Shown here: one piece after another, positions 1,597 to 64,000 of the stretch | Layout: each line of letters starts with the position of its first letter | Position numbering within the stretch: the stretch's first letter is position 1 | Source: Planctomycetota bacterium | Lineage (GTDB): Bacteria; Planctomycetota; UBA1135 | Length of the DNA stretch: 64,000 bases | Direction: 5' to 3' | Assembly (NCBI GenBank): GCA_049609225.1 | Contig: JBMYYH010000002.1 | Span: 3,368-67,367 of the forward strand | The notes under the pieces: model-generated | What the model saw: the letters and a program-made list of their open reading frames with translations, nothing else | What the model was told of the DNA's origin: nothing | Databases searched by the model: none | Position numbers and translations under genes: made by a program

Positions 1597-2525
1597 CGAC
1601 GTTCCTCTGCGGTAATGCGATGCCGCACTTCCATCCACAAGGCCGTCACATATGACAGCACCAGGACACCACAGACCAAGTGGCCGGTCGCAAGGATGCT
1701 TTGAATGAGGAAGCGTTCGCCTTCATCCTGAAAGCTGCCCATCAACGGGCCCATCAAGAAGGCCCAAGCCGCCACACCCAGTGCGAGTTGCGTGCCGAGC
1801 ACATGCGCCAAACCACGCGCGGTCTTGGTCATGCGTTCTTGACCACGGAACTTGGTCATGGTCTGTTGAATCAGGAACAGGACCACCACCGAAGTCGTGA
1901 TGGCGAGGACCAAGTGGCCTTCAAAAGCGCCTTGCTTATGGCGCAGGCTGGCTGCGCTGAACAGGTTCAGGAACAACAGCACCAGTGCGACCACGCTCCA
2001 GACCTTGAGCCGCGCGACGCGATGTGCGGGGAAGGCGTCGGAGGGGCGATGCCAGGTTGGGGCGGTGCATTTGCACAGCATCACCAACAACAGGACCACG
2101 AACTGCGCTCCTACGGCGTGCAGGATGGCGACGAGATAATCATTATCCAAGACCCTGCTCGCGCCAAGCAGACCTTGGCCGGTGACGATGAGCAGGGAAG
2201 CCGTCGTCAGCATGCGTAGTCGGGAGGGGACCTGCTTGGTGAACCAGGATGTCAGGCACAGCAGCAGGATCAACAGGCCGGTCAAGCTCGCAGCTTGACG
2301 ATGCGTATGCTCGACCACCGAACCAAGCCCGAAAGCATTGGCGAGTTTGCCGTAGAAGATGTTGAATAGCGAACCGCCATTGATGTCCGGCCAAGTCGGA
2401 TAGGCCATGCCGACTTCCGCGCTGGTGATGGTGCCGCCGATGCCGCAAGTGAGCGCGATGGTCACCACCAATCCGGCGATGGAAAGGCGATGCAGCCACG
2501 GGAAGTAGGTCGTGCCGGTTTCCAT
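1593..2525 (-). CDS. ctaA: Haem A synthase (COX15/CtaA family)
   Basis: Eight-TM-like protein with His-containing motifs in both halves (VVEHTHRQAA, FEGHLVLAIT). It sits directly upstream of ctaB. Start taken at METGTTYFPW (2525), overlapping the cytochrome c stop by 1 nt (TGATG). Confidence 0.75.
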   Translation of the reverse strand: METGTTYFPWLHRLSIAGLVVTIALTCGIGGTITSAEVGMAYPTWPDINGGSLFNIFYGKLANAFGLGSVVEHTHRQAASLTGLLILLLCLTSWFTKQVPSRLRMLTTASLLIVTGQGLLGASRVLDNDYLVAILHAVGAQFVVLLLVMLCKCTAPTWHRPSDAFPAHRVARLKVWSVVALVLLFLNLFSAASLRHKQGAFEGHLVLAITTSVVVLFLIQQTMTKFRGQERMTKTARGLAHVLGTQLALGVAAWAFLMGPLMGSFQDEGERFLIQSILATGHLVCGVLVLSYVTALWMEVRHRITAEERR

Positions 2526-3160
2526 CACTGCACCTCCTCGCCCATGGGATTGGTCCAACGCTCCTTCTCGATATCCATCGCTGCGACGAAAGCCTCCGCC
2601 GGAGTGTGAGTGCCAAGCAGCGACAAGGCGCGATTCCAGACCGCCCCGCGAATCATCAGGTAGTAGACATAATCCACAGCCGCATGCCGGTCCTCTTCGC
2701 TGAGCGCAGAGAACTCACTCATCGAGGTCGACGGCACCCCTTCCAATACCGTGCGACGTAGATCCGAACGCAAGGGAGGGCGCCCGATCGGTGTGCTTTG
2801 GTGGGTGGCGGCGCCGAGACTGAAGTTGCGCGGCGGCGGTGTGAGGAGAGCGGCGGTCGGGGTATCCGCACCACCATCCCCGCCATGACAATGCAGGCAG
2901 TTCACTGCATAAACCTTGCGCCCATAGTCCAAGTCGGCGAAGGGGCCGTCGTACCAACTGATGTCGACCATCGGCTGGGTGAAGGCACCGAACTCACTGC
3001 CGATCAAGTTGAACAGGACTTCCTGCTCCTCAGTATCGAGGGTGTAGATCGGTTCGGCATCGGGCGCGTAATAAGGCTTGGTCAAGGTCAGCCCTAAGCC
3101 AGCTGCCGCAGCGACGGCAACGACGACCAATGCGATCCTGTCGGCTTTGGGCAGACTCAT
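2525..3160 (-). CDS. Membrane-anchored mono-haem c-type cytochrome
   Basis: CLHCHG (CxxCH) with a downstream Met candidate (TSMSEF). N-terminal anchor MSLPKADRIALVVVAVAAAAGLGL. The first 108 codons of track ORF 2525-3484 overlap the DUF420 gene and have Arg/Pro/Ser-rich shadow composition, so the start is set at ATG 3160 (ATGA overlap). Confidence 0.75.
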   Translation of the reverse strand: MSLPKADRIALVVVAVAAAAGLGLTLTKPYYAPDAEPIYTLDTEEQEVLFNLIGSEFGAFTQPMVDISWYDGPFADLDYGRKVYAVNCLHCHGGDGGADTPTAALLTPPPRNFSLGAATHQSTPIGRPPLRSDLRRTVLEGVPSTSMSEFSALSEEDRHAAVDYVYYLMIRGAVWNRALSLLGTHTPAEAFVAAMDIEKERWTNPMGEEVQ

Positions 3161-3621
3161 GCTTGGCTCGGTAGTGCAGAAACTGCGAGGCTGCCGGAGT
3201 CGGTCAAGACATACAGCACCAGATAGATCACTACGCCCGTGATCGAAACATAAAGCCAAATCGGAAAGGTGATCTTGGCCAGACGCTTGTGTTGCTCCCG
3301 ACGTTCCTTCAGTCCGAGGAAGATGGTGCGCACTGCGAGGAAAGGCACCGCAGCAGCAAGCACGGTGTGGGAAAGCAGCAGACCGAAGTAGGGGTAGCGT
3401 CCCCAGTCGGGTCCTTGGTACTTCACCTGAATGGCAAAGTGGAAGTGGTAATAGAGATAGGAGATCAGGAAGACGACCGAGCAACCAAAGGCCGCCAACA
3501 TGAACTTCTTATGCGCGCTTTCCTGGCCGCGTTTCACCTGGAGCACACCAATCACAAGGAGCAACCCCGCCAGCCCGTTGAGGGTGGCGTTCAGTGGGGG
3601 AAAAATGGTGGGGTCGTCCAT
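3157..3621 (-). CDS. DUF420-family membrane protein (cytochrome oxidase-associated, CtaM-like)
   Basis: Four-TM protein MDDPTIFPPLNATLNGLAGLLLVIGV...HKKFMLAAFGCSVVFLISYLYYHF...FPIWLYVSITGVVIYLVLY, matching the DUF420 pattern. It is the first gene of the cta operon. Start taken at ATG 3621. Confidence 0.7.
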   Translation of the reverse strand: MDDPTIFPPLNATLNGLAGLLLVIGVLQVKRGQESAHKKFMLAAFGCSVVFLISYLYYHFHFAIQVKYQGPDWGRYPYFGLLLSHTVLAAAVPFLAVRTIFLGLKERREQHKRLAKITFPIWLYVSITGVVIYLVLYVLTDSGSLAVSALPSQA

Positions 3622-3651
3622 GGCTATCGAGCCCCATAGAATAGGCGTTCC

Positions 3652-4026
3652 ATGGCTCGTCTGCTTCTCATCGCCGCCGCCGGTGCTGCCGGCACATTGG
3701 CGCGCTACGGTCTCAGTACCTGGGTCCGGCAATGGGCTGGATCGGGCTTCCCGTGGGGCACTCTGGCGGTCAATGGACTCGGCTGCCTGCTGTTCGGCGT
3801 GATTCTGACGCTCTCCAGCGAGAAGGGACTTCTGGAAGACGAAACCGCCACTTGGATCATGGTTGGTTTCCTCGGTGCCTTCACCACCTTCTCGACCTTC
3901 GCCTTTGAAAGCGGCGATTTCCTGAAGGCGGGGGACCTCGGTGCTGCAGCGCTCAATATCGGCGCCAATGTGGTGCTTGGCCTAGGCCTCTTCTTCGCCG
4001 GCGTGTGGCTGGCGCGCGCGCTTTAA
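3652..4026 (+). CDS. crcB: Fluoride ion channel CrcB/FluC
   Basis: 124 aa with four TM segments. Typical motifs GTLARY, FPWGTLAVN and GFLGAFTTFSTF. Confidence 0.85.
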   Translation: MARLLLIAAAGAAGTLARYGLSTWVRQWAGSGFPWGTLAVNGLGCLLFGVILTLSSEKGLLEDETATWIMVGFLGAFTTFSTFAFESGDFLKAGDLGAAALNIGANVVLGLGLFFAGVWLARAL

Positions 4027-4421
4027 TCGCCGTCGGTCGGGGCTTCCCGTGGCAATGGCCGCGTCAGCAGGAAGACGATGATGGCCAGCACGATGAGGAC
4101 GGAAGTGATCTTCATCCAAACGGCAATGTCGCGCAATAGCATCGGAACGGCGCCGAGGCCTAGAAGCACCACCGTCGACCAAACCTTGGCCTTCTTCGAA
4201 ACGGCGCCCTGTTCTTCCCAGGCGCGCAGCTCCGGCCCAACCGCCGGCCAATTCAGGATCCATTGGTGCATGCGCTCGGAGCTGCGTGAGAAACAGGCCA
4301 TCGACAGCAACAGGAAGGGGACCGTCGGCATGACGGGCAGCAGGGTCCCGATCACTGCCAGGAGCAGGAACAGGAATCCGCCTGTCAGCAACAGGGTGCG
4401 GAGGACGTGCTTTGCAACCAT
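4023..4421 (-). CDS. DUF454/YbaN-like inner-membrane protein
   Basis: 132 aa, LLAVIGTLLPVMPTVPFLLLSMACFSRSSERMHQWIL is the YbaN-type signature. Its stop overlaps the convergent crcB stop within TTAA (4023-4026). Confidence 0.65.
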   Translation of the reverse strand: MVAKHVLRTLLLTGGFLFLLLAVIGTLLPVMPTVPFLLLSMACFSRSSERMHQWILNWPAVGPELRAWEEQGAVSKKAKVWSTVVLLGLGAVPMLLRDIAVWMKITSVLIVLAIIVFLLTRPLPREAPTDGD

Positions 4422-13169: not shown

Positions 13170-13617
13170 GGCTCCGAAGAAGGGGATTCTCGCCACCCTG
13201 AAATCGCCTGTGCTTTGGGCTGCTCCAGTGGGAGGCCCCTTAGCGATTCTTGCTCTGTCGATTTCCCTAATCATTCTCTTCGCCTTGTTGACTGGAGAGT
13301 TTTCGGTGCAGGCAGTCGTGAACCATGGATTCAAGACATGGGATCAACTGCTTCCCTACTTGGGTGTCTTCCTGCTTCCAACGGGCCTATTTTCCAACCT
13401 GCTGGTCATCTTCTTCCGGAAGGAGGGGGTCGAATCCTGGGATTGGGTAGCAAGTATGTCTAGCGCCGCGGTTGGGGCATGTACCGCTATGGCAGTGAGC
13501 ATGGCGTTCTGGGGGGAATCCTCCGCGATCTTATGGTTCGCTGCCTTTACCCTCGGCGGTGCCTGCCATTGGATAGGGAATCTCTTTCTCATGCGTAAGG
13601 GGTTGTTTCACGACTGA
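13120..13617 (+). CDS. Hypothetical four-TM membrane protein (start uncertain)
   Basis: 165-aa ORF with membrane-protein-like composition. The 5-prime 50 nt overlap the preceding ORF, so the true start may be an internal GTG. Confidence 0.45.
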   Translation: MPCSGRGCDSVGRKKIEAPKKGILATLKSPVLWAAPVGGPLAILALSISLIILFALLTGEFSVQAVVNHGFKTWDQLLPYLGVFLLPTGLFSNLLVIFFRKEGVESWDWVASMSSAAVGACTAMAVSMAFWGESSAILWFAAFTLGGACHWIGNLFLMRKGLFHD

Positions 13618-13699
13618 AGGCGATCGCCGTCGGAATCCGAAACAGACGGTTTGCCTGGCCTGCTATTCCTGTTAGGTTCAGGAGTGAAAGTTTCCGCCC

Positions 13700-14041
13700 G
13701 TGCAGCATCAACGCACCCACCTCCTCTTCGTCTGCTCCCGCAATCAATGGCGGAGCCCCACCGGAGAGCAGATCTACGCCCGCGATTCCCGTGTCGCGGT
13801 GCGTTCCTGCGGGGTGAGCATGAAGGCACGGCGTCGGCTGCGCGAAGAGGATCTGGACTGGGCCGACGTCGTGCTGGTGATGGAACATGCCCATCGGCAA
13901 CGCATCCTGCAGCGCTTCCCGGATGCAGGGCGCGATGTCGCGATCGAAGTGCTCGACATTCCCGACGACTATGGATTCATGGACCCGGAGCTTCAGGAGA
14001 TGCTGCGCGGTCATGTCGAGGCCTTGTTGGAAAACCTGTAA
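13700..14041 (+). CDS. Low-molecular-weight phosphotyrosine-phosphatase-family protein (short form)
   Basis: GTG start. LLFVCSRNQWRS is a C-X5-R-S P-loop near the N-terminus, and DIPDDYG provides a candidate general-acid Asp. Confidence 0.7.
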   Translation: MQHQRTHLLFVCSRNQWRSPTGEQIYARDSRVAVRSCGVSMKARRRLREEDLDWADVVLVMEHAHRQRILQRFPDAGRDVAIEVLDIPDDYGFMDPELQEMLRGHVEALLENL

Positions 14042-14107
14042 CGAATCGAGAACACGAGCGAATGCCTAGTCGAGCCGCGGGGATGGTCCCCGAGGCTGCC
14101 AACGACC

Positions 14108-14500
14108 ATGCAATCCAAGATCACCCTCGTCGCTCGCCTCGTCGCCGCCGTCATTCTCGGCCAGACTTTGTTCTTCAAGTTCACCGGGGCGGAGGAATCG
14201 GTGCACATCTTCACCACGCTCGGCGCGGAGCCTTGGGGGCGCATCGGCAGCGGCGTGGCGGAACTGATTGCGGTCCTGCTGTTGTTGATGCCACGTACCG
14301 CAGCGATCGGCGGCGCGATGACCGTCGGCTTGATGGTGGGTGCAGTGGGTTCGCATCTCGGCCCGCTCGGTATCGATGTGCAAGGGGATGGAGGAACCTT
14401 GTTCACGATGGCACTCATCGCGCTGGTTGCCGGCGCCGTCGTCGCTTGGATCGGACGTAGGGAGCTTCCCATTGTTGGCGGGCTGTTTCGAAAGGCTTGA
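14108..14500 (+). CDS. DoxX-family membrane protein
   Basis: 130 aa, four TM. Pattern LVARLVAAVILGQTLFFKFTG...GVAELIAVLLLLMPRTA. Confidence 0.7.
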   Translation: MQSKITLVARLVAAVILGQTLFFKFTGAEESVHIFTTLGAEPWGRIGSGVAELIAVLLLLMPRTAAIGGAMTVGLMVGAVGSHLGPLGIDVQGDGGTLFTMALIALVAGAVVAWIGRRELPIVGGLFRKA

Positions 14501-14534
14501 TTGCGCCTAACCTGGGGTGGGTAACCTCGTATCC

Positions 14535-15131
14535 ATGTGTATGACCTCCAGGCCCACCTTGCTGATTTTTACGCTGGCCCTCGTCACCACGACCTCCTGC
14601 GCTATGCCGTGGACGGATGTGAATACGCGCCTGCGTGCGAGCGGCACTTTCGTCGAATCGATGGACGTCGATACCACCGCACCAGGTGGCGCGACCACCA
14701 CCGCCGATAGTGAATATGAATCCATCGAAGTCGGCTTCGGTAGCTTGGCCTCGCAGGATGGCGAGAAGAAGTGGTTGCGCGAGATGTTCGTGGCGAAGTC
14801 TTCCGTCCGCGAAGTCGATGCCTATGAGATCGGCGCTGGCGGACGCTTCTTCCTCGGTAACTACAGCGGCTTCGAGCCCTTCCTCGGATTGCACGCCGTG
14901 GTCTCGATCTACGATGAACTTGCTGGCACCAATAGTGCGGGCACGCAATTCGGCGTCCGTTTGGGCGCGGGCACGGAATACGCTCTCAACGACTGGATTT
15001 TCCTCGACGCCGGCCTGCATTACCTGGTGCCGATCAGCGGTTCCTCTTTCTCCTACACCGGCATCGGCGCAGTAGACGACACTGAGGTGGGGGGCTTATC
15101 GCTCGGCGTCGGTATCGGTATCGACTTCTAG
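14535..15131 (+). CDS. Small outer-membrane beta-barrel lipoprotein (OmpW/porin-like)
   Basis: Signal peptide with Cys (LALVTTTSC), alternating beta-strand pattern, C-terminal ...GVGIGIDF ending in Phe. The track start at 14517 is GTG; ATG 14535 preferred. Confidence 0.6.
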   Translation: MCMTSRPTLLIFTLALVTTTSCAMPWTDVNTRLRASGTFVESMDVDTTAPGGATTTADSEYESIEVGFGSLASQDGEKKWLREMFVAKSSVREVDAYEIGAGGRFFLGNYSGFEPFLGLHAVVSIYDELAGTNSAGTQFGVRLGAGTEYALNDWIFLDAGLHYLVPISGSSFSYTGIGAVDDTEVGGLSLGVGIGIDF

Positions 15132-15177
15132 GCGGTTTCCCGCAGCAACGTAGCCGAATCGTGCTCGAGTGGTTCGG

Positions 15178-16122
15178 TTACTCGACGCCTTTGCGTCGCA
15201 CCACGTAGATCGGGCGCTGCTTCACTTCCTGATAGATGCGCCCGACATACTCGCCGATCACGCCGATGCCGAGCATCGTTGCGCCACCGATCAACACGAT
15301 CAGTGCAGTGAGGTAAGAGATGTCGTTGCCCATATCCAACACGTTGAACCAGTTGCCAAACAAAAGGAACAATGCGGCAATGATGCTGAAGATGATGGCG
15401 AAGGCGCCAACGATCATCAGCACGCGCAGCGGGAACACCGAGAAGGCCAACAAACCTTCGATCGCGATGCCTGAGAGGATCCAGAAGTTGGTCTTCTCTT
15501 CGCCGGCCGCACGGCCAGGACGGTCGAAGGCGATGCCATCTTGCTTGAAGCCGACGAAGGCTCGCAGACCCGGCACGAAACGACCGCGCTCGCGCATGGA
15601 GCACAGGGCATTGACCACATCGCGACGCATCAGGCAGAAGTTGCCGGCATCGAGCGGTACGTGGATGTAGGCGGTGCGCTTCCACAAGCGGTAGAAGATC
15701 TTCATCGAGGTGCGCTTCACGAACCCCTCCTTCTCGCGCTTGAGCCTTTGCCCATAAACCACATCAAGGTCTTCGTCTTCGAGCTTCTTGAGGAACTCTT
15801 CGATCATCTCGGGAGGATCCTGCAGATCCCCATCCATCATGACGACGAATTCCCCATCCGCGTGATCCAGGCCACAGGCCACTGCACCGGCGTGGCCGAA
15901 ATTCCTAGACAAGCTCAGGTACTTGTACCTTGGCTCTTCTGCATGAAGCTTCTCGAGCAGACCAAGGGATCCGTCCACCGAGCCGTTCTCGACCCACAGG
16001 ACTTCCCACGACTCCTCGCCCATCTTCTCGAAGGTAGCCTTCAGCCGCTCAGCAAGCGCCTGGATGTTGGGTTCCTCGTCGTAAGACGGGATGACGACCG
16101 AGAAGCGGGGGTGTTCGCTCAT
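15178..16122 (-). CDS. Family-2 glycosyltransferase, polyprenyl-phosphate sugar transferase type (GtrB/ArnC-like)
   Basis: FSVVIPSYDEEPNI, the DGDLQD (DxD) motif, and two C-terminal TM helices. Confidence 0.85.
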   Translation of the reverse strand: MSEHPRFSVVIPSYDEEPNIQALAERLKATFEKMGEESWEVLWVENGSVDGSLGLLEKLHAEEPRYKYLSLSRNFGHAGAVACGLDHADGEFVVMMDGDLQDPPEMIEEFLKKLEDEDLDVVYGQRLKREKEGFVKRTSMKIFYRLWKRTAYIHVPLDAGNFCLMRRDVVNALCSMRERGRFVPGLRAFVGFKQDGIAFDRPGRAAGEEKTNFWILSGIAIEGLLAFSVFPLRVLMIVGAFAIIFSIIAALFLLFGNWFNVLDMGNDISYLTALIVLIGGATMLGIGVIGEYVGRIYQEVKQRPIYVVRRKGVE

Positions 16123-56539: not shown

Positions 56540-56640
56540 GATCGAATCTGAAGGGGGAGACTCTGACGGGGGAAGTGCAGATTCTAACCTCTCTTTTTCG
56601 GCCAACTCCGGCTTCCAGGTTAGGATTCCGGCTACCTAAT

Positions 56641-58449
56641 ATGCCGGATACGACCCCTTCCAACGACCGAAATCAGGCCCTGCAGAGCCTCTTGGATGCC
56701 GCCCGACGCAATCCAGACACTCAAGTCGGCCCATACCTGCTCTTGGAGCGCGTGGGAGGGTCCGGCATCACCGAGGTTTACCGCGCCTATGATCCCAAGC
56801 AGGAGCGTCTCGTCGCGGTGAAGCGGATCGCGGTCCGGCATCTTTCACCGGACCAGGTCGAGGACCTCCAAGACTCTTGTGCCTTCCTGGAGCAACGCGC
56901 CGTCCCGGGATTGGTGCGGATCTACAGCCATGGCATGGCGGGCGACCGCTATTACGTCGCGATGGAGTGGATGAGCGGCGGCACGCTGGCGCAAAGCGGA
57001 TTGCTGGGCACCCTCGATGAAGATGAAATCTTCGCTCTGGCGAAGACCCTGAGCATCGGCCTTGGCCATCTCCACGAGCATCGGTTGTGGCACTTGTCGA
57101 TTGAGCCCAACAGCCTGCTGGTCGACGGCAAGGATGTCCGCATCCCAAGCCTCGAAACCATCCTGCGCAAGATTCCGGCTAAGCGTGGGGGGCCGATTCC
57201 TGCCAAGCCCTCGGCCCTGTCGGCACCGGAATATGCGGAAGGCTCGCGGCATTCCATCGATCATCGCGCCGACATCTTCGGACTGGCCTACACGCTGCAG
57301 GCTTTGGTGCGCGAAGAGTCCATGGGACCATCCTTGCGCGCTGCCTTAGGTCGGGCGCAAAGAATGGAGCCGCGGAAGCGTCCCGACAACATGGAGGCCT
57401 TTCGGAAGCTGCTATTTCAGAACACCGGTGCGGCCGACCGCGACTCCCATTTGGAGCGTCAAGGGAAGGCATTCGGACTCCTGTTTGCGGGCGCGACCAT
57501 GCTGGCCCTATGGCGCAGCCAGTGCTGGGGGCCACTGGAGGAGCCCAATGGAGAGACCTATCTCGGAACGCTTCTTGCCAAGGGATCCTATGCGCAAGTC
57601 TTAGAGACCTTGGAGCACGAAGACCTGTCCATGGTTCTCGGGCCCAGTCTTCAGACCGAGTACCGCCAGCGTGCAGAGCTTGGCATCTTTCTTCAATCCT
57701 TCGGCTTCCATCCGATGGTCGCGGAAGAATCCCTGCAACTTCAAGGCAGCAAGGCATCGATTCACGGCCAGTCCATCGAGTTTGCCACGATCGATCTGCT
57801 GCAACGGATCGCTCTTGGCGTGCGCCGCGACATCGTCGCTGATATCGATTTGCTGCAACGGAAATACCCGAAGCATATTGAGCCGCAGCTTCTCGCCTTT
57901 CTCTACACCCTGAATTATGGTGCGGCGGAAGACATCACCCTGCTATTGGAGCAACCACCGCAGGCTGGGCGTCATCCGAGTATTCCGGGATTGTTGGCGC
58001 TTGCGTATCTCGCTGGAGACCGCCCCGAGCATGCGTTGCAGACCTTGCTTACCGAAGCCGAGTTCTACCCATACTTCTTGATCGACGTCGGCATGTTGCA
58101 GTTGCGTCAGGGGCATCATCAAAATGCGTTGGATACCTTGGAGCGTGCGCTGCTTCAGTATCCGGATTCGCCCAGCGCGCAACATCATCGTGCGCTCGCG
58201 CGAATCGCCCTGGATCAGGCGGAGCTGGCCGCCGCGGATCTTCTTGCTTGGGCGCAACGCGTCGATCGGGGTGAAACCGACGAGGAACTGTTGTGGGATC
58301 CCGAACCCCGCGAAGGTGAGGAAGCCTACTTACGTGGGAGTGCGGTCTATCAATGGCCATCCAAGGCCATCCTGCGTGACGACCCCGGTTTGGCTCCTTT
58401 ATGGGAAACCACCTCCGGCGCCGCCTTGTTGCAGTTGCTTGGTTCCTAA
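56641..58449 (+). CDS. Ser/Thr-kinase-like protein predicted to be catalytically dead (pseudokinase), with TM and TPR-like C-terminal region
   Basis: G-loop-like VGGSGITEVY and VAVK Lys are present. The HRD position reads WHLSIEPNS and the DFG position reads RIPSLE. SAPEY and DIFGLAYTL are retained. TM GLLFAGATMLALW. Confidence 0.7.
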   Translation: MPDTTPSNDRNQALQSLLDAARRNPDTQVGPYLLLERVGGSGITEVYRAYDPKQERLVAVKRIAVRHLSPDQVEDLQDSCAFLEQRAVPGLVRIYSHGMAGDRYYVAMEWMSGGTLAQSGLLGTLDEDEIFALAKTLSIGLGHLHEHRLWHLSIEPNSLLVDGKDVRIPSLETILRKIPAKRGGPIPAKPSALSAPEYAEGSRHSIDHRADIFGLAYTLQALVREESMGPSLRAALGRAQRMEPRKRPDNMEAFRKLLFQNTGAADRDSHLERQGKAFGLLFAGATMLALWRSQCWGPLEEPNGETYLGTLLAKGSYAQVLETLEHEDLSMVLGPSLQTEYRQRAELGIFLQSFGFHPMVAEESLQLQGSKASIHGQSIEFATIDLLQRIALGVRRDIVADIDLLQRKYPKHIEPQLLAFLYTLNYGAAEDITLLLEQPPQAGRHPSIPGLLALAYLAGDRPEHALQTLLTEAEFYPYFLIDVGMLQLRQGHHQNALDTLERALLQYPDSPSAQHHRALARIALDQAELAAADLLAWAQRVDRGETDEELLWDPEPREGEEAYLRGSAVYQWPSKAILRDDPGLAPLWETTSGAALLQLLGS

Positions 58450-58458
58450 GACGCAGGC

Positions 58459-60921
58459 CTACATCGGTGCAGTCGTCACATCGCCCGCCTTCCAGCGGTC
58501 GAGCGTTTCGGCCAACAGGCTGGCGCGCACCGGCTTAGCCATGTAATCGTCCATGCCACTATGCAGACATAGCTCACGCGTGCTCAATCGCGCGTTCGCA
58601 GTCATCGCAATCACGATCGTATGCGCGCCCGACTGAGCTTCGCGCACACGAATCAAGCGCGTCGCCTCATAGCCGTCCATGTGCGGCATTTGGCAATCCA
58701 TGAAGACCAGGTCATAACCGCCGGCCATGACTTTTTCGACGGCATCCTGTCCATTGTCGACGCGATCCACATGGCAACCCAAACGTTCGAGGAGTTTGGC
58801 CAAGACCTTCTGGTTGACGGGATCGTCTTCCGCGATCAAGACCTTCAAGCCGTCGCTCGGTTCGGTGGCGGAGTCCTGGTCGGCCGCACGTCGGGCGAAC
58901 AGGGGGGAGCGGGCGATGCCATGCGCTTCGAGCAGGGCATTATGCAGGCCTGAATGGCGCAAGGGGCTCTGCAGGCGATAGTCCCAGGGCTCTTCTCCTT
59001 GTGCCGAACCTGGCGTCGGTGGTTCGAGGCCGGTGATGAGCAGGAGCTTCAACTGATCGCCTTTTTCCGTCGCACGAATCTGACGACAGAGTTCCTTGCC
59101 GGACTGACCTTCCAGTTCATCATCCATCAGGACCAAGTCGAAGGCCGTGTCGAGCAGCAAGGATGCGCGTACTTCACGCAAGGCATCCCATCCGTCCGAC
59201 GCCGTCGTCACGCGGAATCCCCATGCCGCAAGTTGACGCTGCAGATGCTCCGTCCGCATCGGGCTACTCGCCGCCAACAGCAGACGTCGTCCCTGCCACT
59301 CTTCCACCACACGTGCCCCGCGACGATCCTCGGTGTCCTTTCCGACGCGTACCGTGAAGCAGAAGGACGTGCCTTCTCCGAGTTGGCTCTCGACCCAGAT
59401 CGATCCACCCATCAGGCGCACGATCTGACGCGTGACCGCCAATCCCAGGCCGTTGCCGCCGAACTCATGGCCATCTTCCTGACCTGGTTGCGAGAAGGAC
59501 CGCAGAATGCGCACACGCTTGTCTTCCGGCATGCCGGCGCCGGTATCCCGCACGTGAAAGCGCAGTACCACTTCATTCAGTTCCACTTCCACCAGCTCGA
59601 GCACCACATTCACCTCGCCATCGCGGGTGTGACGTAATGCATTCGCTGCCAGCTTGACCAGGATCTGACGCAACCGCCCGGCATCTCCAAGCACGCGGTT
59701 CGGCACTTCCGGTGCGACGAAACCGGACAAACGCACATTGTGCTGTTTGGCCTGTGTCGTCAGCAGTTCCAGGATCCCGTCCATCAGACGCCTTGGCTCC
59801 AGCAGTTTGCTTTCCAACTCCACCGAACCCGATTCCAAGCGCGAGAAGTCCTGGACATCTTCCACCAAGGCCAACACTGCACCCGCCGATCCGGAAATGG
59901 TTTCCGCGGCATCGCGTTGGGTGGTGTTCAATCCGGAAGTCAACAGCAGGTCGGTCATGCCGAGCACCCCGGTCATCGGAGTGCGGATTTCCTGCGTGAT
60001 CGCGGAGAGGAAATCGCTCTTGGACCGCGTCGCGATCTGGGCATCCCGACGTGCATCCTCAAAGCGCGTGCGCATCTCCCGTTCCTTCTGGAACATCAAG
60101 TAGAGCTCCGCCAACAGGCCACTCACCGGTACGAAGTAGGCCAAAGCCTTCATGACATGCGCCACATTGAAGCCGGCATCGTGCAGGCCACTGGAACCGA
60201 AGGCCATGTAGAGTTGCGTCGCGCATTGCGGGATCATCGACAGGATCAGTGCAAGCGCGAAGGGCGTGGGGTTGTGGCGATAATAAGCCGGGAACACCAG
60301 GCCGCCGCAGAGCAAGAAGATGCCAAGCGGATAGAGGTCCAAAGGTCTCTTGACCAGATTCTCCGCGTAGATGGTGCGCGGCAATCCCTCTGCCGTCGCG
60401 CAATAGTCCATCAGGAACAAGGCCGAGCCCATGAATACGGCAGCGATGCCGAACAGCGTGATGCTGCGCATCTTGCTACCTCGGTCCTTCCACAAGACGA
60501 ACAATCCCACACCACAAAGTGAGATCAGTCCCGCGAACAAACGACTACCGGCCCAGGTATACGGAATGAAACCATCGAGATCCGTCACGCTCGCGACCAG
60601 GCCACTGGCGGCAAGGGTGTGGAAGATGTCCATACCGGCGGCGCCGAGCACCGCCAAACCAATGACGGGCAAGGAAGGCTCGTCGGTCAGGCGGTATTGC
60701 AGGAAAGCCAAGAGGCCTACGATCACTGCAGCACAGACCCCGGTCCATTCCAGGAGGCTGTGGATCATGCTCTCGCCTTCGCCGCCCGTTGGGCTGGAGA
60801 AGTCGAAGCCGAGCATCATCAAGGCGGCAGGCGCGAAGCACACGGCTGCCAGCCACTTGCCGTAAGTCGTCACGGCAGGCCAGGGGCTGGAAGCGAGCTG
60901 AATGTCGCTGGAGGTTGTCAT
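58459..60921 (-). CDS. Hybrid sensor histidine-kinase-like protein / response regulator lacking the canonical phospho-His
   Basis: About 8 TM. The DHp H-box reads FLSAITQEIRTPMTG (Gln codon CAG at 59992-59994). N/G boxes NALRHT, DTGAGM and GGNGLGLAV. Degenerate middle receiver, then canonical receiver VLIAEDDPVNQ...[18 protein letters not shown]...AKP. Confidence 0.85.
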   Translation of the reverse strand: MTTSSDIQLASSPWPAVTTYGKWLAAVCFAPAALMMLGFDFSSPTGGEGESMIHSLLEWTGVCAAVIVGLLAFLQYRLTDEPSLPVIGLAVLGAAGMDIFHTLAASGLVASVTDLDGFIPYTWAGSRLFAGLISLCGVGLFVLWKDRGSKMRSITLFGIAAVFMGSALFLMDYCATAEGLPRTIYAENLVKRPLDLYPLGIFLLCGGLVFPAYYRHNPTPFALALILSMIPQCATQLYMAFGSSGLHDAGFNVAHVMKALAYFVPVSGLLAELYLMFQKEREMRTRFEDARRDAQIATRSKSDFLSAITQEIRTPMTGVLGMTDLLLTSGLNTTQRDAAETISGSAGAVLALVEDVQDFSRLESGSVELESKLLEPRRLMDGILELLTTQAKQHNVRLSGFVAPEVPNRVLGDAGRLRQILVKLAANALRHTRDGEVNVVLELVEVELNEVVLRFHVRDTGAGMPEDKRVRILRSFSQPGQEDGHEFGGNGLGLAVTRQIVRLMGGSIWVESQLGEGTSFCFTVRVGKDTEDRRGARVVEEWQGRRLLLAASSPMRTEHLQRQLAAWGFRVTTASDGWDALREVRASLLLDTAFDLVLMDDELEGQSGKELCRQIRATEKGDQLKLLLITGLEPPTPGSAQGEEPWDYRLQSPLRHSGLHNALLEAHGIARSPLFARRAADQDSATEPSDGLKVLIAEDDPVNQKVLAKLLERLGCHVDRVDNGQDAVEKVMAGGYDLVFMDCQMPHMDGYEATRLIRVREAQSGAHTIVIAMTANARLSTRELCLHSGMDDYMAKPVRASLLAETLDRWKAGDVTTAPM

Positions 60922-60969
60922 CGGTGCCTAGGTTGAGGGGATTCGGAATCGAAGTGGGAGCTACTGCAG

Positions 60970-63456
60970 CTATGTCACGGCTGCAGGTGGTAGCCATTCG
61001 CGGAAGACCTTGTGGATGTCATCCATAGAGAATGGTTTGGCGATGTAGTCATCCATGCCGGCAGCGAGGCATGCCTCACGGTCGCCGACCATGGCGTTCG
61101 CGGTCATCGCAATGATGGGGGTGTGCTCACCCTCACCTTCAGACTGACGCAGGACCTCGGTGGCTTCGTAGCCATCCATCTCCGGCATCTGGCAGTCCAT
61201 GAACACGAGGTCGTAATGGCCCTTCTGGAACATCTCGACGGCGATCTGTCCGTTGCCCGCGACCTCGACCACGCAGCCGACCTTCTCCAGGTGCTTGACC
61301 GCGACCTTCTGGTTGACCAGGTTGTCTTCGGCGAGCAGGATGCGCACTCCATCGCAGTGGATCTCGTCGGTCTCGGGTTGATCGATGGGGGCATCCGCGT
61401 TTTCCTGCGGACCAGCCATGTCTTCGGGAGCGATCTCTTCAATCCCAAGAGTGCTGCAGACCGCGTGGCGCAGCATGTTCTTCTTGATGGGCTTGCGCAG
61501 GATGCTGCGGAAGACGCCGTCGCGCAAAAGTTCACCGGGAACGCCACCTCCAATCGGAGTCATGGCGATCAGCAGCGTACCGCTTGTCGCGGGATCTTCT
61601 TCAAGAGCCTTGCAGAGTTCCTGCATCTCCTTGCCGGGAAGGGCGAGGTCGACAATCGCGACCTGGATGGGACTACCTTCCTCTTCGGCATCACGGAGGC
61701 CGTCGATAAGCTCCCATGCGTCGGCACTTTCGGCGACGCGGCAACCCCAGGAACGCAGGTGGGTGGCAAGGGATTCGCGGTTGGCGAGGTGGGCATCGGC
61801 CACCATCACGCGGGTCGCGGCAAGTGGGTCGGCGCTCGGCACCAACACACCGCTGACGCCTGCCTGTTTCGGTAGCTTCACCGTGAACCAGAAGGTCGAG
61901 CCTTCGCCTTCGATCGAATCGACGCCAATCTCACCGCCCATCAAGGTGCAAAGTTCCTTGGAGATGGCAAGGCCGAGGCCGGAGCCGCCGTACTTACGCG
62001 TGGTAGATGCGTCGACCTGCGAGAAGCTGGTGAATAGACGAGTCAGGGCGTGGGGCGGAATGCCGATGCCGGTGTCGCGCACTTCAAAGCGCAGCATCAC
62101 CGAGTGGCCATCGTCATAAACCAGGCTGCCGTGCACCGTGACTTCGCCTTCGGGCGTGAACTTCACCGCATTGCTGCCGATGTTGCGCAGGATCTGGCAC
62201 AAACGCTCCGCATCCCCGACCAACTGCGGCGGGATCTCAGGCTTCAGGCAACCCGAGAACTGCAATCCCTGCTCCGACGCCTTCAGCGCCAAGGCTTCCA
62301 TGGTCTCATCGAAGCAATGCTGCAGATCGAAGTCATGGCTTTCGATCTCTACCTTGCCGGCCTCGACGCGGGAGTAGTCGAGGATGTCATTCAGGAGTGC
62401 CAACAGGTTGTCGGCCGAAGCGCGGACGGCGCGGGTGCACTCCTTCTGCTCTTCCGTCAGATCGGTGTCGAGCAGGAGAGAACTCATGCCCACCACTCCA
62501 TTCATCGGCGTGCGGATCTCATGGCTCATGGCGGAGAGGAATTCCCCTTTGGCTTGGGAAGCCTTGTCTGCTTCCTTGCGCGCAGCCACCAACTCCACTT
62601 CTGCTTCTTGCTGACGTCCGTGCGCGGTGCGGTGCTGGATCATCAGGCCGAGGGCAGGCGTCAGATAGGCCAAGCACTTGATGGCCGAAGCACTCAAGGC
62701 GGCGACGTCGGTGGGGGCCAGTGAGCCGAACACCATGTAGAGCTGCATGGCGCCCAACGGAATCAGCGACAGCAGGAAGGCGTTGGCGAAGGGGGAGGGA
62801 TGACGTCGCACATGGAGTGGGAACACCAAGATGCCGAGTGCGGCATACAGGGCGAAGGGTGCGAGGTCGAAGGGCCGATGCAGGAGCGCATCCGCAAACT
62901 GGGTTTGGGGGAGGCCTGAAGCTCCGGCAGCGGATTGGACCAGGAAGGCGGCGGCAGCGAGCAGGATGGCTGCCACGATGGCGATCTGCGGCAGACTGAC
63001 CACCTTGCGTCCGCGGAGCCAAACCGCGAAAATACCCATGCCGATGAGCAGGATCGAGGCGTGGGCAAAACGTCCGAGGGTCCACGTGGTGGTGAGGAAA
63101 TCGGCGCTGGCTAGGTCGACGCCCTTGGAGGAGGCGGCGGCGAGGATGGGGAAGGCGTCCATCCCTGCAGCGCAAAGCAGGCCCCAAGCGAGTACCGGCA
63201 GGGCGGCTTCCCGATGCACGCGATACTGGACCAGGGCGATTCCGGCGACCATCACCGCGCAACAGGCGGCGGTCCAATCGAGTAGCGCAAGGCCCATGGC
63301 GTGCCCAGCGGTGTTCGGGACCAGGCCTGCGAGCAGCAGGACCGCGGGCAGAGCACAAATGGCCGCAAGTGTTCCTCCCCAGCGAAGAAGGAAACGACGC
63401 TCCTCCGCGGACCAGATTCCTGGTCGGGAGGGTAGACGGGAAGGCGAGCGGGCCAT
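60970..63456 (-). CDS. Hybrid sensor histidine kinase / response regulator
   Basis: About 8 TM. Canonical H-box [27 protein letters not shown] and GGSGLGLAI. Middle receiver-like domain, then C-terminal receiver [11 protein letters not shown]...[18 protein letters not shown]...AKP. Confidence 0.85.
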
Positions 63457-63540: not shown

Positions 63541-64000
63541 TCAGCCGTCGATGCGGCCCGAAACCCGTTCGACGATGGCCTTGCCGATGGCCAGGCTCGA
63601 AGTCGCGGCGGGGGACGGCGCATTGCACACGTTGACGACCTGCGCGTGCTCTTCGAACAGGAAATCGTCGATCATCGACCCATCCGGCATCAGAGCTTGG
63701 GCGCGCACTCCGGCCGGTGCCTTTTCCAGATGGCTTTCGCGAATCTCGGGCATCAGTCGGGCGAGGGCCTTGGTGAAGGCCTTCCGCGACAGGGATCGAT
63801 GCATTTCACCCATGCCACTCTTCCAGTGCTTGGCGATCAACTTCCAGAAGCCGCCATAAGTGAAGGTGCCGCCGAGATCCTTGAGGTTGATGTCGCCCCA
63901 GGTGTAGCCCTCGCGTGCCAAAGCCAACACGGCGTTCGGCCCACATTCCACCGAACCATCGATCATGCGCGTGAAGTGCACGCCCAGGAAGGGGAAGTTC
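63541..64000 (-). CDS. lhgO: L-2-hydroxyglutarate oxidase, C-terminal part (5-prime end outside the window)
   Basis: ...[13 protein letters not shown]...FWKLIAKHW...[25 protein letters not shown] is colinear with the LhgO C-terminus. The reading frame stays open to the window edge. Confidence 0.8.

Follow-up and report, generated by a model that had tools for sequence, protein, structure and literature searches.

A putative pseudo-histidine kinase with a conserved glutamine at the phospho-acceptor position, encoded beside its intact paralogue in marine Planctomycetota

We analysed a 64,000-nucleotide stretch of DNA (contig JBMYYH010000002.1, positions 3,368 to 67,367, assembly GCA_049609225.1; hereafter, the window) from an uncultured marine Planctomycetota bacterium, represented by a 3.1-Mb metagenome-assembled genome (MAG) that is roughly 90% complete. 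The window carries two adjacent genes for hybrid histidine kinases, and the downstream gene appears to encode a functional, selected pseudo-histidine kinase in which a glutamine residue occupies the position of the phospho-accepting histidine. The upstream gene (60970..63456, 828 aa; the His copy) has the architecture MASE3-HisKA-HATPase_c-REC1-REC2, with a semi-degenerate first receiver (REC1) and every catalytic motif intact, including the canonical phospho-acceptor His312 (codon CAT, 62521..62523) in SHEIRTP. The downstream gene (58459..60921, 820 aa; the Gln copy) has the architecture MASE3-HisKA-HATPase_c-pseudo-receiver-REC2, with no phospho-accepting His in the HisKA domain: the corresponding residue is Gln310 (codon CAG, 59992..59994), in TQEIRTP, within FLSAITQEIRTPMTG. 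Both genes, the 48-nt spacer between them (60922..60969) and all the domains described below lie on the minus strand. The original prediction, made from the letters of the window alone, had described two same-strand open reading frames (ORFs) separated by 48 nt, with Gln at the aligned H-box position of the downstream copy and His in the upstream copy; its coordinates and lengths were reproduced, and both residues were read as described.

Comparisons between genomes show that the Gln at this site is real, conserved and selected. Whole-genome searches recovered this tandem pair from two other members of the genus and from one further genus, and the protein database contained 14 full-length orthologue clusters of the Gln copy (59–91% identity, three genera), every one of which reads [A/S]I[T/S/A]-Q-EIR[T/S]P. 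Gln was found in 15/15 full-length Gln-clade sequences and in additional loci, and His in 20/20 sequences from the His clade and the outgroup, with SHEIRTP present in all His-copy orthologues and in eight more remote MASE3 hybrid kinases. The Gln codon alternates between CAG and CAA among lineages (the nearest relative, 91% identical, has CAA versus CAG in the host), so the codon has changed synonymously while the residue stayed fixed. A base-call error had been among the options first proposed, together with a comparison of orthologous tandem pairs; this comparison revealed Gln throughout and no orthologue with His, and the occurrence of the same Gln in independent assemblies, with different codons, makes a sequencing error not credible. 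Among the 49 species representatives of the host's family, 5, in three genera, have the box QEIR[T/S]PM. A phylum-wide search for this exact motif, the pattern of which also allowed Ser at the Arg codon, found it in no kinase of the ~400 other Planctomycetota genomes. Six extra matches among 401 genomes corresponded to SecA, HisS or non-coding DNA; they are not H-boxes and were rejected.

The two copies are true paralogues. They share 38% identity over 805 residues (BLASTP, E 4e-172), and Pfam detected HisKA, HATPase_c and two Response_reg stretches in each. The shared architecture and the common C-terminal receiver motif had been anticipated, and the motif was indeed found in both copies. In the Gln copy, HisKA (PF00512, 54.9 bits) and HATPase_c (PF02518, 88.9 bits) both exceeded the cut-offs. 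The membrane sensor had initially been described as an unassigned domain with about eight transmembrane (TM) helices; 8 TM helices were predicted for the Gln copy by hydropathy scanning and also by an AlphaFold2 model (mean pLDDT 79), but the domain proved assignable, as the proposed domain search identified it as MASE3 (PF17159, residues ~20–275, 60097..60864; 48.4 bits, cut-off 31). At 16.4 bits, the host's His copy falls short of this cut-off, but PF17159 is present in its orthologues. According to both the hydropathy scan and the model, TM8 of the Gln copy continues unbroken into helix 1 of the dimerisation and histidine phosphotransfer (DHp) domain.

The DHp domain of the host's Gln copy (HisKA, residues 290–365, 59827..60054) contains no His at all, and no DHp His is conserved across the Gln clade. 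Since Gln replaces the acceptor His and there is no other conserved DHp His, the Gln copy is predicted to be unable to autophosphorylate at the canonical DHp site. The H-box stretch QEIR[T/S]P shows no variation within the Gln clade, all sequences of which keep the Glu residue following the acceptor position and the Thr or Ser residue four positions on (E311 and T314 in the host), which form the E..T phosphatase motif. The catalytic and ATP-binding (CA) domain (HATPase_c, residues 411–527, 59341..59691) has kept its four nucleotide-binding boxes throughout the clade, with Asn in the N-box, D-x-G-x-G in G1, Phe in the F-box and GGNGLGL in G2; the corresponding boxes in the host are NALRHT (N427), DTGAG (D459-x-G461-x-G463), RSFSQ and GGNGLGL. 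It is therefore plausible that the Gln copy is ATP-competent. However, the initial description of the ATP-binding boxes as intact holds for these four motifs and not for the lid (QPGQEDGHEF in the host) and two N-box residues, which differ from those of all His-bearing relatives and are fixed in the clade.

In total, 21 positions carry one invariant residue in the Gln clade and a different invariant residue in all the other sequences compared. These substitutions include M to I and H to Q in the H-box, KF to RH in the N-box, F to L and D to G in the F-box and ATP lid, where an Arg has also been lost, and N to D and D to T in REC2. The lid segment D.S.TR[K/R]Y is replaced with G[Q/H]EDG..[F/Y], with no change in lid length. 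The changes at the N-box, the F-box and the lid suggest that the reaction centre has been remodelled despite the intact boxes. The canonical receiver REC2 (residues 691–810, 58492..58851) retains every catalytic residue in the Gln clade (E-D-D, at E698-D699-D700 in the host, D742, T774 and K796). REC1 (residues 545–660, 58942..59289) is a pseudo-receiver that has lost the acidic pair and the Lys residue clade-wide, with the Asp also lost in two sequences. A degenerate receiver had been proposed for both copies, but REC1 is a clear pseudo-receiver in the Gln copy only, as that of the His copy retains Asp and Lys. The REC1–REC2 linker of the Gln copy (residues ~661–690, 58852-58941) is short and of fixed length in the clade, with an [FY]xRRxxD motif in 13/15 sequences; the His-clade linker is long, variable and acidic.

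The maximum-likelihood tree recovered the Gln and His clades as monophyletic groups, each with a support value of 100. The Gln copy appears to have arisen by the tandem duplication of a MASE3 hybrid kinase within one marine Planctomycetota family. The stem of the Gln clade is long (0.86 substitutions per site, versus 0.33) and its internal branches are short, indicating a single burst of change after the duplication, followed by constraint. We estimated nonsynonymous (dN) and synonymous (dS) divergence by the Nei–Gojobori method, with our own implementation, for five genomes carrying both genes (10 genome pairs). The dN of the Gln copy was lower than that of the His copy in 10/10 pairs. In the closest pair, the values for the Gln and His copies, respectively, were 0.069 and 0.097 for dN, 1.27 and 1.04 for dS, and 0.055 and 0.093 for omega; every pair has a dS of at least 1.0, close to saturation or past it, which makes the omega values rough and leaves only the ranking of the dN values robust. 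A comparison of domains across seven matched genomes gave a mean pairwise identity of 81% for the CA domain of the Gln copy, which is its best-conserved domain, versus 73% for that of the His copy. The MASE3 sensor was also better conserved in the Gln copy (65% versus 50%), and REC1 was less conserved (55.5% versus 65%). An apparent frameshift in the Gln copy of one genome (G003) was rejected as a sign of decay, since the sequence is masked with N where the gene is split, and another assembly has this gene coding for an intact 819-aa protein. The decay of the downstream copy, raised as a concern in the original prediction, is contradicted by this result and by the slower evolution of the Gln copy than of the His copy.

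The gene order around the pair is conserved in at least 10 lineages: thiolase, FadB-like enzyme, DUF6249, extracytoplasmic function (ECF) sigma factor, small ORF and FAD oxidoreductase (DAO), followed by the kinase pair, with the His copy first, and then a variable insert, an NAD-epimerase and a dTDP-sugar isomerase. The spacer between the two kinase genes is mostly ~19–48 nt long in relatives, reaching 122 nt in one of them (G009). We found no terminator-like or promoter-like site in the 48-nt spacer of the host, and the two genes are therefore probably co-transcribed. In one congener (G006), the His copy is followed by unrelated genes, with no Gln copy alongside. This His copy nests inside the His clade, so the Gln copy was lost secondarily in this genome, and its persistence alone indicates that the His copy is self-sufficient.

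We put the chances at about even that the Gln copy is an accessory co-sensor, draining, redirecting or gating phosphate in the His copy's relay. It would sense on its own account, as a second partner to the intact upstream kinase, and both would act in a single phosphorelay feeding the one stand-alone histidine phosphotransfer (Hpt) protein of the genome. Its REC2 would receive phosphoryl groups from the phospho-His of the His copy or back from phosphorylated Hpt, and its DHp domain, with the E..T transmitter-phosphatase motif, would speed phosphoryl loss. RetS, which accepts phosphate on its REC2 and acts as a phosphatase, provides a published precedent (PMC5992135). The Gln copy could thereby attenuate or gate the output according to the signal at its own MASE3 sensor, with the retained nucleotide-binding domain setting its conformational state. 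Any contact or exchange of phosphate between the two proteins is inferred, as is the direction in which regulation would run. Two of the options first put forward, a heterodimer partner acting in trans and a receiver-only sink or connector, are both compatible with the sequence evidence; the third, the base-call error, is not. As the His copy is complete and dispensability is one-way (G006), an accessory modulator is favoured over an obligate half-kinase.

The Hpt domain in question is the only one found in the ~90%-complete genome. It forms a stand-alone 130-aa protein encoded on another contig (C35, L025:1381-1773, plus strand), unlinked to the pair, and the hybrid kinases of the genome presumably converge on it. 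The Hpt gene lies between genes for an alanine symporter and a DegT-type aminotransferase.

Several observations weigh against an accessory drain or gate. A pure sink or phosphatase needs no ATP site, yet the CA domain is the best-conserved part of the Gln copy, suggesting a nucleotide-dependent role that the sink model leaves unexplained. Moreover, PleC is among the HisKA kinases requiring the His residue for phosphatase activity, although, in CrdS, EnvZ and HK853, it is the Thr or Asn residue at position His+4, and not the His, that is essential for this activity (PMC3510030). Finally, a metagenome contig (ERZ4231639 NODE_2971; L039) carries a 5'-truncated Gln-type gene (2479-4089) directly after the DAO gene, with neither a His copy nor a MASE3 domain. 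This gene starts MTANLAKARFLSCSLSAITQEIRTPMTG, retains the Q-box, has no internal stops and is 80% identical to its nearest full-length relative. In this lineage, the cytoplasmic module either works without its neighbour, as a soluble derivative, or is starting to decay.

The main rival to the accessory co-sensor is a division-of-labour heterodimer, in which mixed DHp dimers would form and the CA domain of the Gln copy would phosphorylate His312 of its partner in trans. A single phosphorylation site would then integrate the signals of two different MASE3 sensors. Such a heterodimer would be the simplest account of the conserved ATP domain, since intact N, G1, F and G2 boxes in the best-conserved domain are hard to explain in a protein without an acceptor of its own. 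The adjacent, probably co-transcribed genes are consistent with it, as is the precedent of FasB/FasC, a heterodimer in which the kinase domain comes from one chain and the His from its partner (PMC12675982). Nevertheless, the His copy has both the His and all the ATP boxes, so there is no complementary defect, and it stands alone in G006. The clade-fixed changes listed above for the N-box, the F-box and the lid suggest a remodelled rather than a preserved autokinase chemistry, the DHp domains of the two copies are just ~48% identical, and paralogous kinases usually evolve away from heterodimers. We therefore consider this arrangement unlikely, at perhaps one chance in a few.

A more doubtful proposal is that the Gln itself is catalytic, its amide positioning the water that attacks the aspartyl-phosphate of a docked receiver. 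Once a phosphorylated receiver had docked on the DHp domain, the Gln amide would take the place from which the imidazole of His normally faces the aspartyl-phosphate of the receiver. An attacking water is positioned in this way by a Gln or Asn residue in CheZ, in CheX and, in HisKA_3 kinases, in the DxxxQ motif. A catalytic Gln would account for the fixation of Gln, and never Asn, Tyr, Ser or any other residue, through CAG/CAA turnover, for the retained E..T motif and for an ATP-binding domain that has been kept with a remodelled lid. If this were the case, the duplication would have yielded a sensor- and nucleotide-gated phosphatase acting on the receiver of the neighbour or on the REC2 of the Gln copy itself.

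It is also improbable, though conceivable, that the Gln copy is a scaffold or allosteric regulator of the DivL type, acting through contact alone and independently of phosphotransfer, with REC2 as a docking domain and a kinase-like fold that would sense a signal or bind a phosphorylated partner. The structures matched by the Gln copy include DivL, and the regulation of an intact hybrid kinase by a His-less kinase with a CA fold is known for DivL and CckA. The DHp-CA-pseudoREC-REC2 order and the short [FY]xRRxxD linker also recall ShkA (PMC6969517). However, the clade-wide conservation of the phosphoryl-chemistry residues of REC2 and of the E..T motif of the DHp domain argues that phosphate is still handled.

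We regard it as very unlikely that the Gln copy is an autokinase acting on an alternative acceptor, whether a non-canonical His or a Ser or Thr residue. Some kinase-like receptors of plants are reported to phosphorylate Ser or Thr, the Gln copy has intact boxes for nucleotide binding, and a similar idea has been raised for the His-less hybrid kinase CCNA_03265 of Caulobacter (PMC11481889), but the DHp domain offers no His in the host and no conserved His in the clade, and nothing else in our data supports this possibility. The last alternative, that the Gln reflects a sequencing or assembly error or that the gene is a pseudogene under relaxed selection, might be suggested by the nature of the genome (a MAG) and the one truncated relative (L039), but is effectively refuted by the recurrence of the same substitution, with synonymous codon turnover, in independent assemblies from at least 10 lineages, the omega of ~0.06, the dN below that of the intact paralogue and the full-length ORFs, the G003 frameshift being an effect of N-masking.

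Several neighbouring genes were also considered. A gene for a DAO-family FAD-dependent oxidoreductase (window positions 63541-63999 and further upstream on contig C2, minus strand) lies directly upstream of the kinase pair, on the same strand, and may belong to the same transcription unit or regulon. The ECF sigma factor gene and the small ORF precede the DAO gene in the relatives examined; in the host, only the DAO gene was confirmed. On the other side, a gene encoding a Ser/Thr-kinase-like protein with TPR repeats (56575-58449, plus strand; Pkinase E 1.5e-13) is convergent on the Gln copy. It has no homologue beside the pair in G009 and, in the nearest relative, the TPR half only is present (46% identity). 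As it is not conserved beside the pair in these genomes, we rejected it as a member of the module. Between the Gln copy and the epimerase gene, the insert differs from lineage to lineage.

The genome encodes a second His-less hybrid kinase, outside the window (contig C41, about nt 13561-15720, plus strand). This protein has Ser for His in its H-box, ILAKVGSEMRVPLTG, and has lost the G1 box, in place of which it has HVRANSQNLS, but its receiver is canonical. By its motifs, it would be a RetS-like "doubly dead" kinase. With our own DHp hidden Markov model, 2/9 HisKA DHp matches in the genome lacked the His; this model is narrow (9 matches), so the count of His-less kinases is a lower bound.

To our knowledge, naturally His-less histidine kinases comprise a handful of studied cases (RetS-like networks, DivL and FasC). 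The pair described here may be seen as a clean natural experiment, a sufficiently recent tandem duplication in which one copy stayed a complete kinase and the other lost the acceptor His only. In the Gln copy, the fixation of Gln and the degeneration of the middle receiver were followed by a conservation stronger than that of the parent, a textbook signature of neofunctionalisation, and the 21 clade-fixed substitutions constitute a defined set for testing. The pair also gives MASE3 a testable two-sensor logic; a search of the literature library on MASE3 together with histidine kinases found no paper. As the host is uncultured and the functional statements are drawn from sequence comparisons, the value of the pair is limited.

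The best match to the Gln copy, in both sequence and fold, was to Caulobacter crescentus ShkA (6qrj), over DHp-CA-pseudoreceiver-REC2, with a Foldseek E of 2.6e-28 and 31% identity. The two proteins have the same DHp-CA-pseudoREC1-REC2 order, the REC1 of the Gln copy being without the Lys and the acidic pair. In ShkA, the pseudo-receiver, which has c-di-GMP-binding residues, is regulatory and the REC1–REC2 linker, with its DDR motif, tethers and locks REC2 (PMC6969517). The linker of the Gln clade has [FY]xRRxxD and not DDR, and is reminiscent of this tether. Unlike the Gln copy, ShkA is a soluble, active kinase that has its His. DivL (4q20) and CCNA_03265 (PMC11481889), both from Caulobacter (C. 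crescentus for DivL), are naturally His-less and retain the CA fold, as does the Gln copy, and CCNA_03265 has also kept its receiver Asp. However, the acceptor position is occupied by Tyr in one case and has no aligned residue in the other, versus a strictly conserved Gln here; neither protein is a tandem paralogue of its partner, and DivL has no receiver.

FasB and FasC of Streptococcus pyogenes are encoded by adjacent kinase-like genes and have been proposed to form a heterodimer in which one chain is a pseudokinase (PMC12675982). The resemblance lies in the adjacency of two kinase-like genes, one of which lacks catalysis of its own. In the Fas system, by contrast, FasC can do without its kinase domain and its His is used, whereas here the His copy is complete and its partner lacks the His only; furthermore, the Fas proteins are not hybrids and have no Hpt step.

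RetS of Pseudomonas aeruginosa does not autophosphorylate, its REC2 accepts phosphate from GacS, and its HExxT motif acts as a phosphatase on the GacS receiver (PMC5992135). The kinase core of RetS is ~35% identical to that of the Gln copy, and RetS structures (6dk7, 6dk8, 7n0e) were among the top structural matches. The membrane sensor, HisKA, HATPase, unused REC1 and REC2 occur in the same order in both proteins. Both have the E..T/N motif in the H-box, and the Gln copy has a degenerate REC1 and a canonical REC2, the predicted acceptor. RetS is a non-autophosphorylating hybrid "kinase" that modulates an intact one, as the Gln copy may do. The defects are nevertheless mirror images, since RetS has the His without the G-boxes and the Gln copy has the G-boxes without the His. 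The sensors also differ (7TMR-DISMED2 in RetS, MASE3 in the Gln copy), and the partner of RetS is an unlinked kinase, whereas that proposed here is the adjacent paralogue, to which the adjacency and co-retention of the genes point. His-less kinase paralogues acting on intact kinases form an established small category (RetS, DivL, FasC and CCNA_03265), to which the pair adds a well-resolved case from marine Planctomycetota, in which the Gln is strictly conserved, the ATP site is intact and the sensors are of the MASE3 type.

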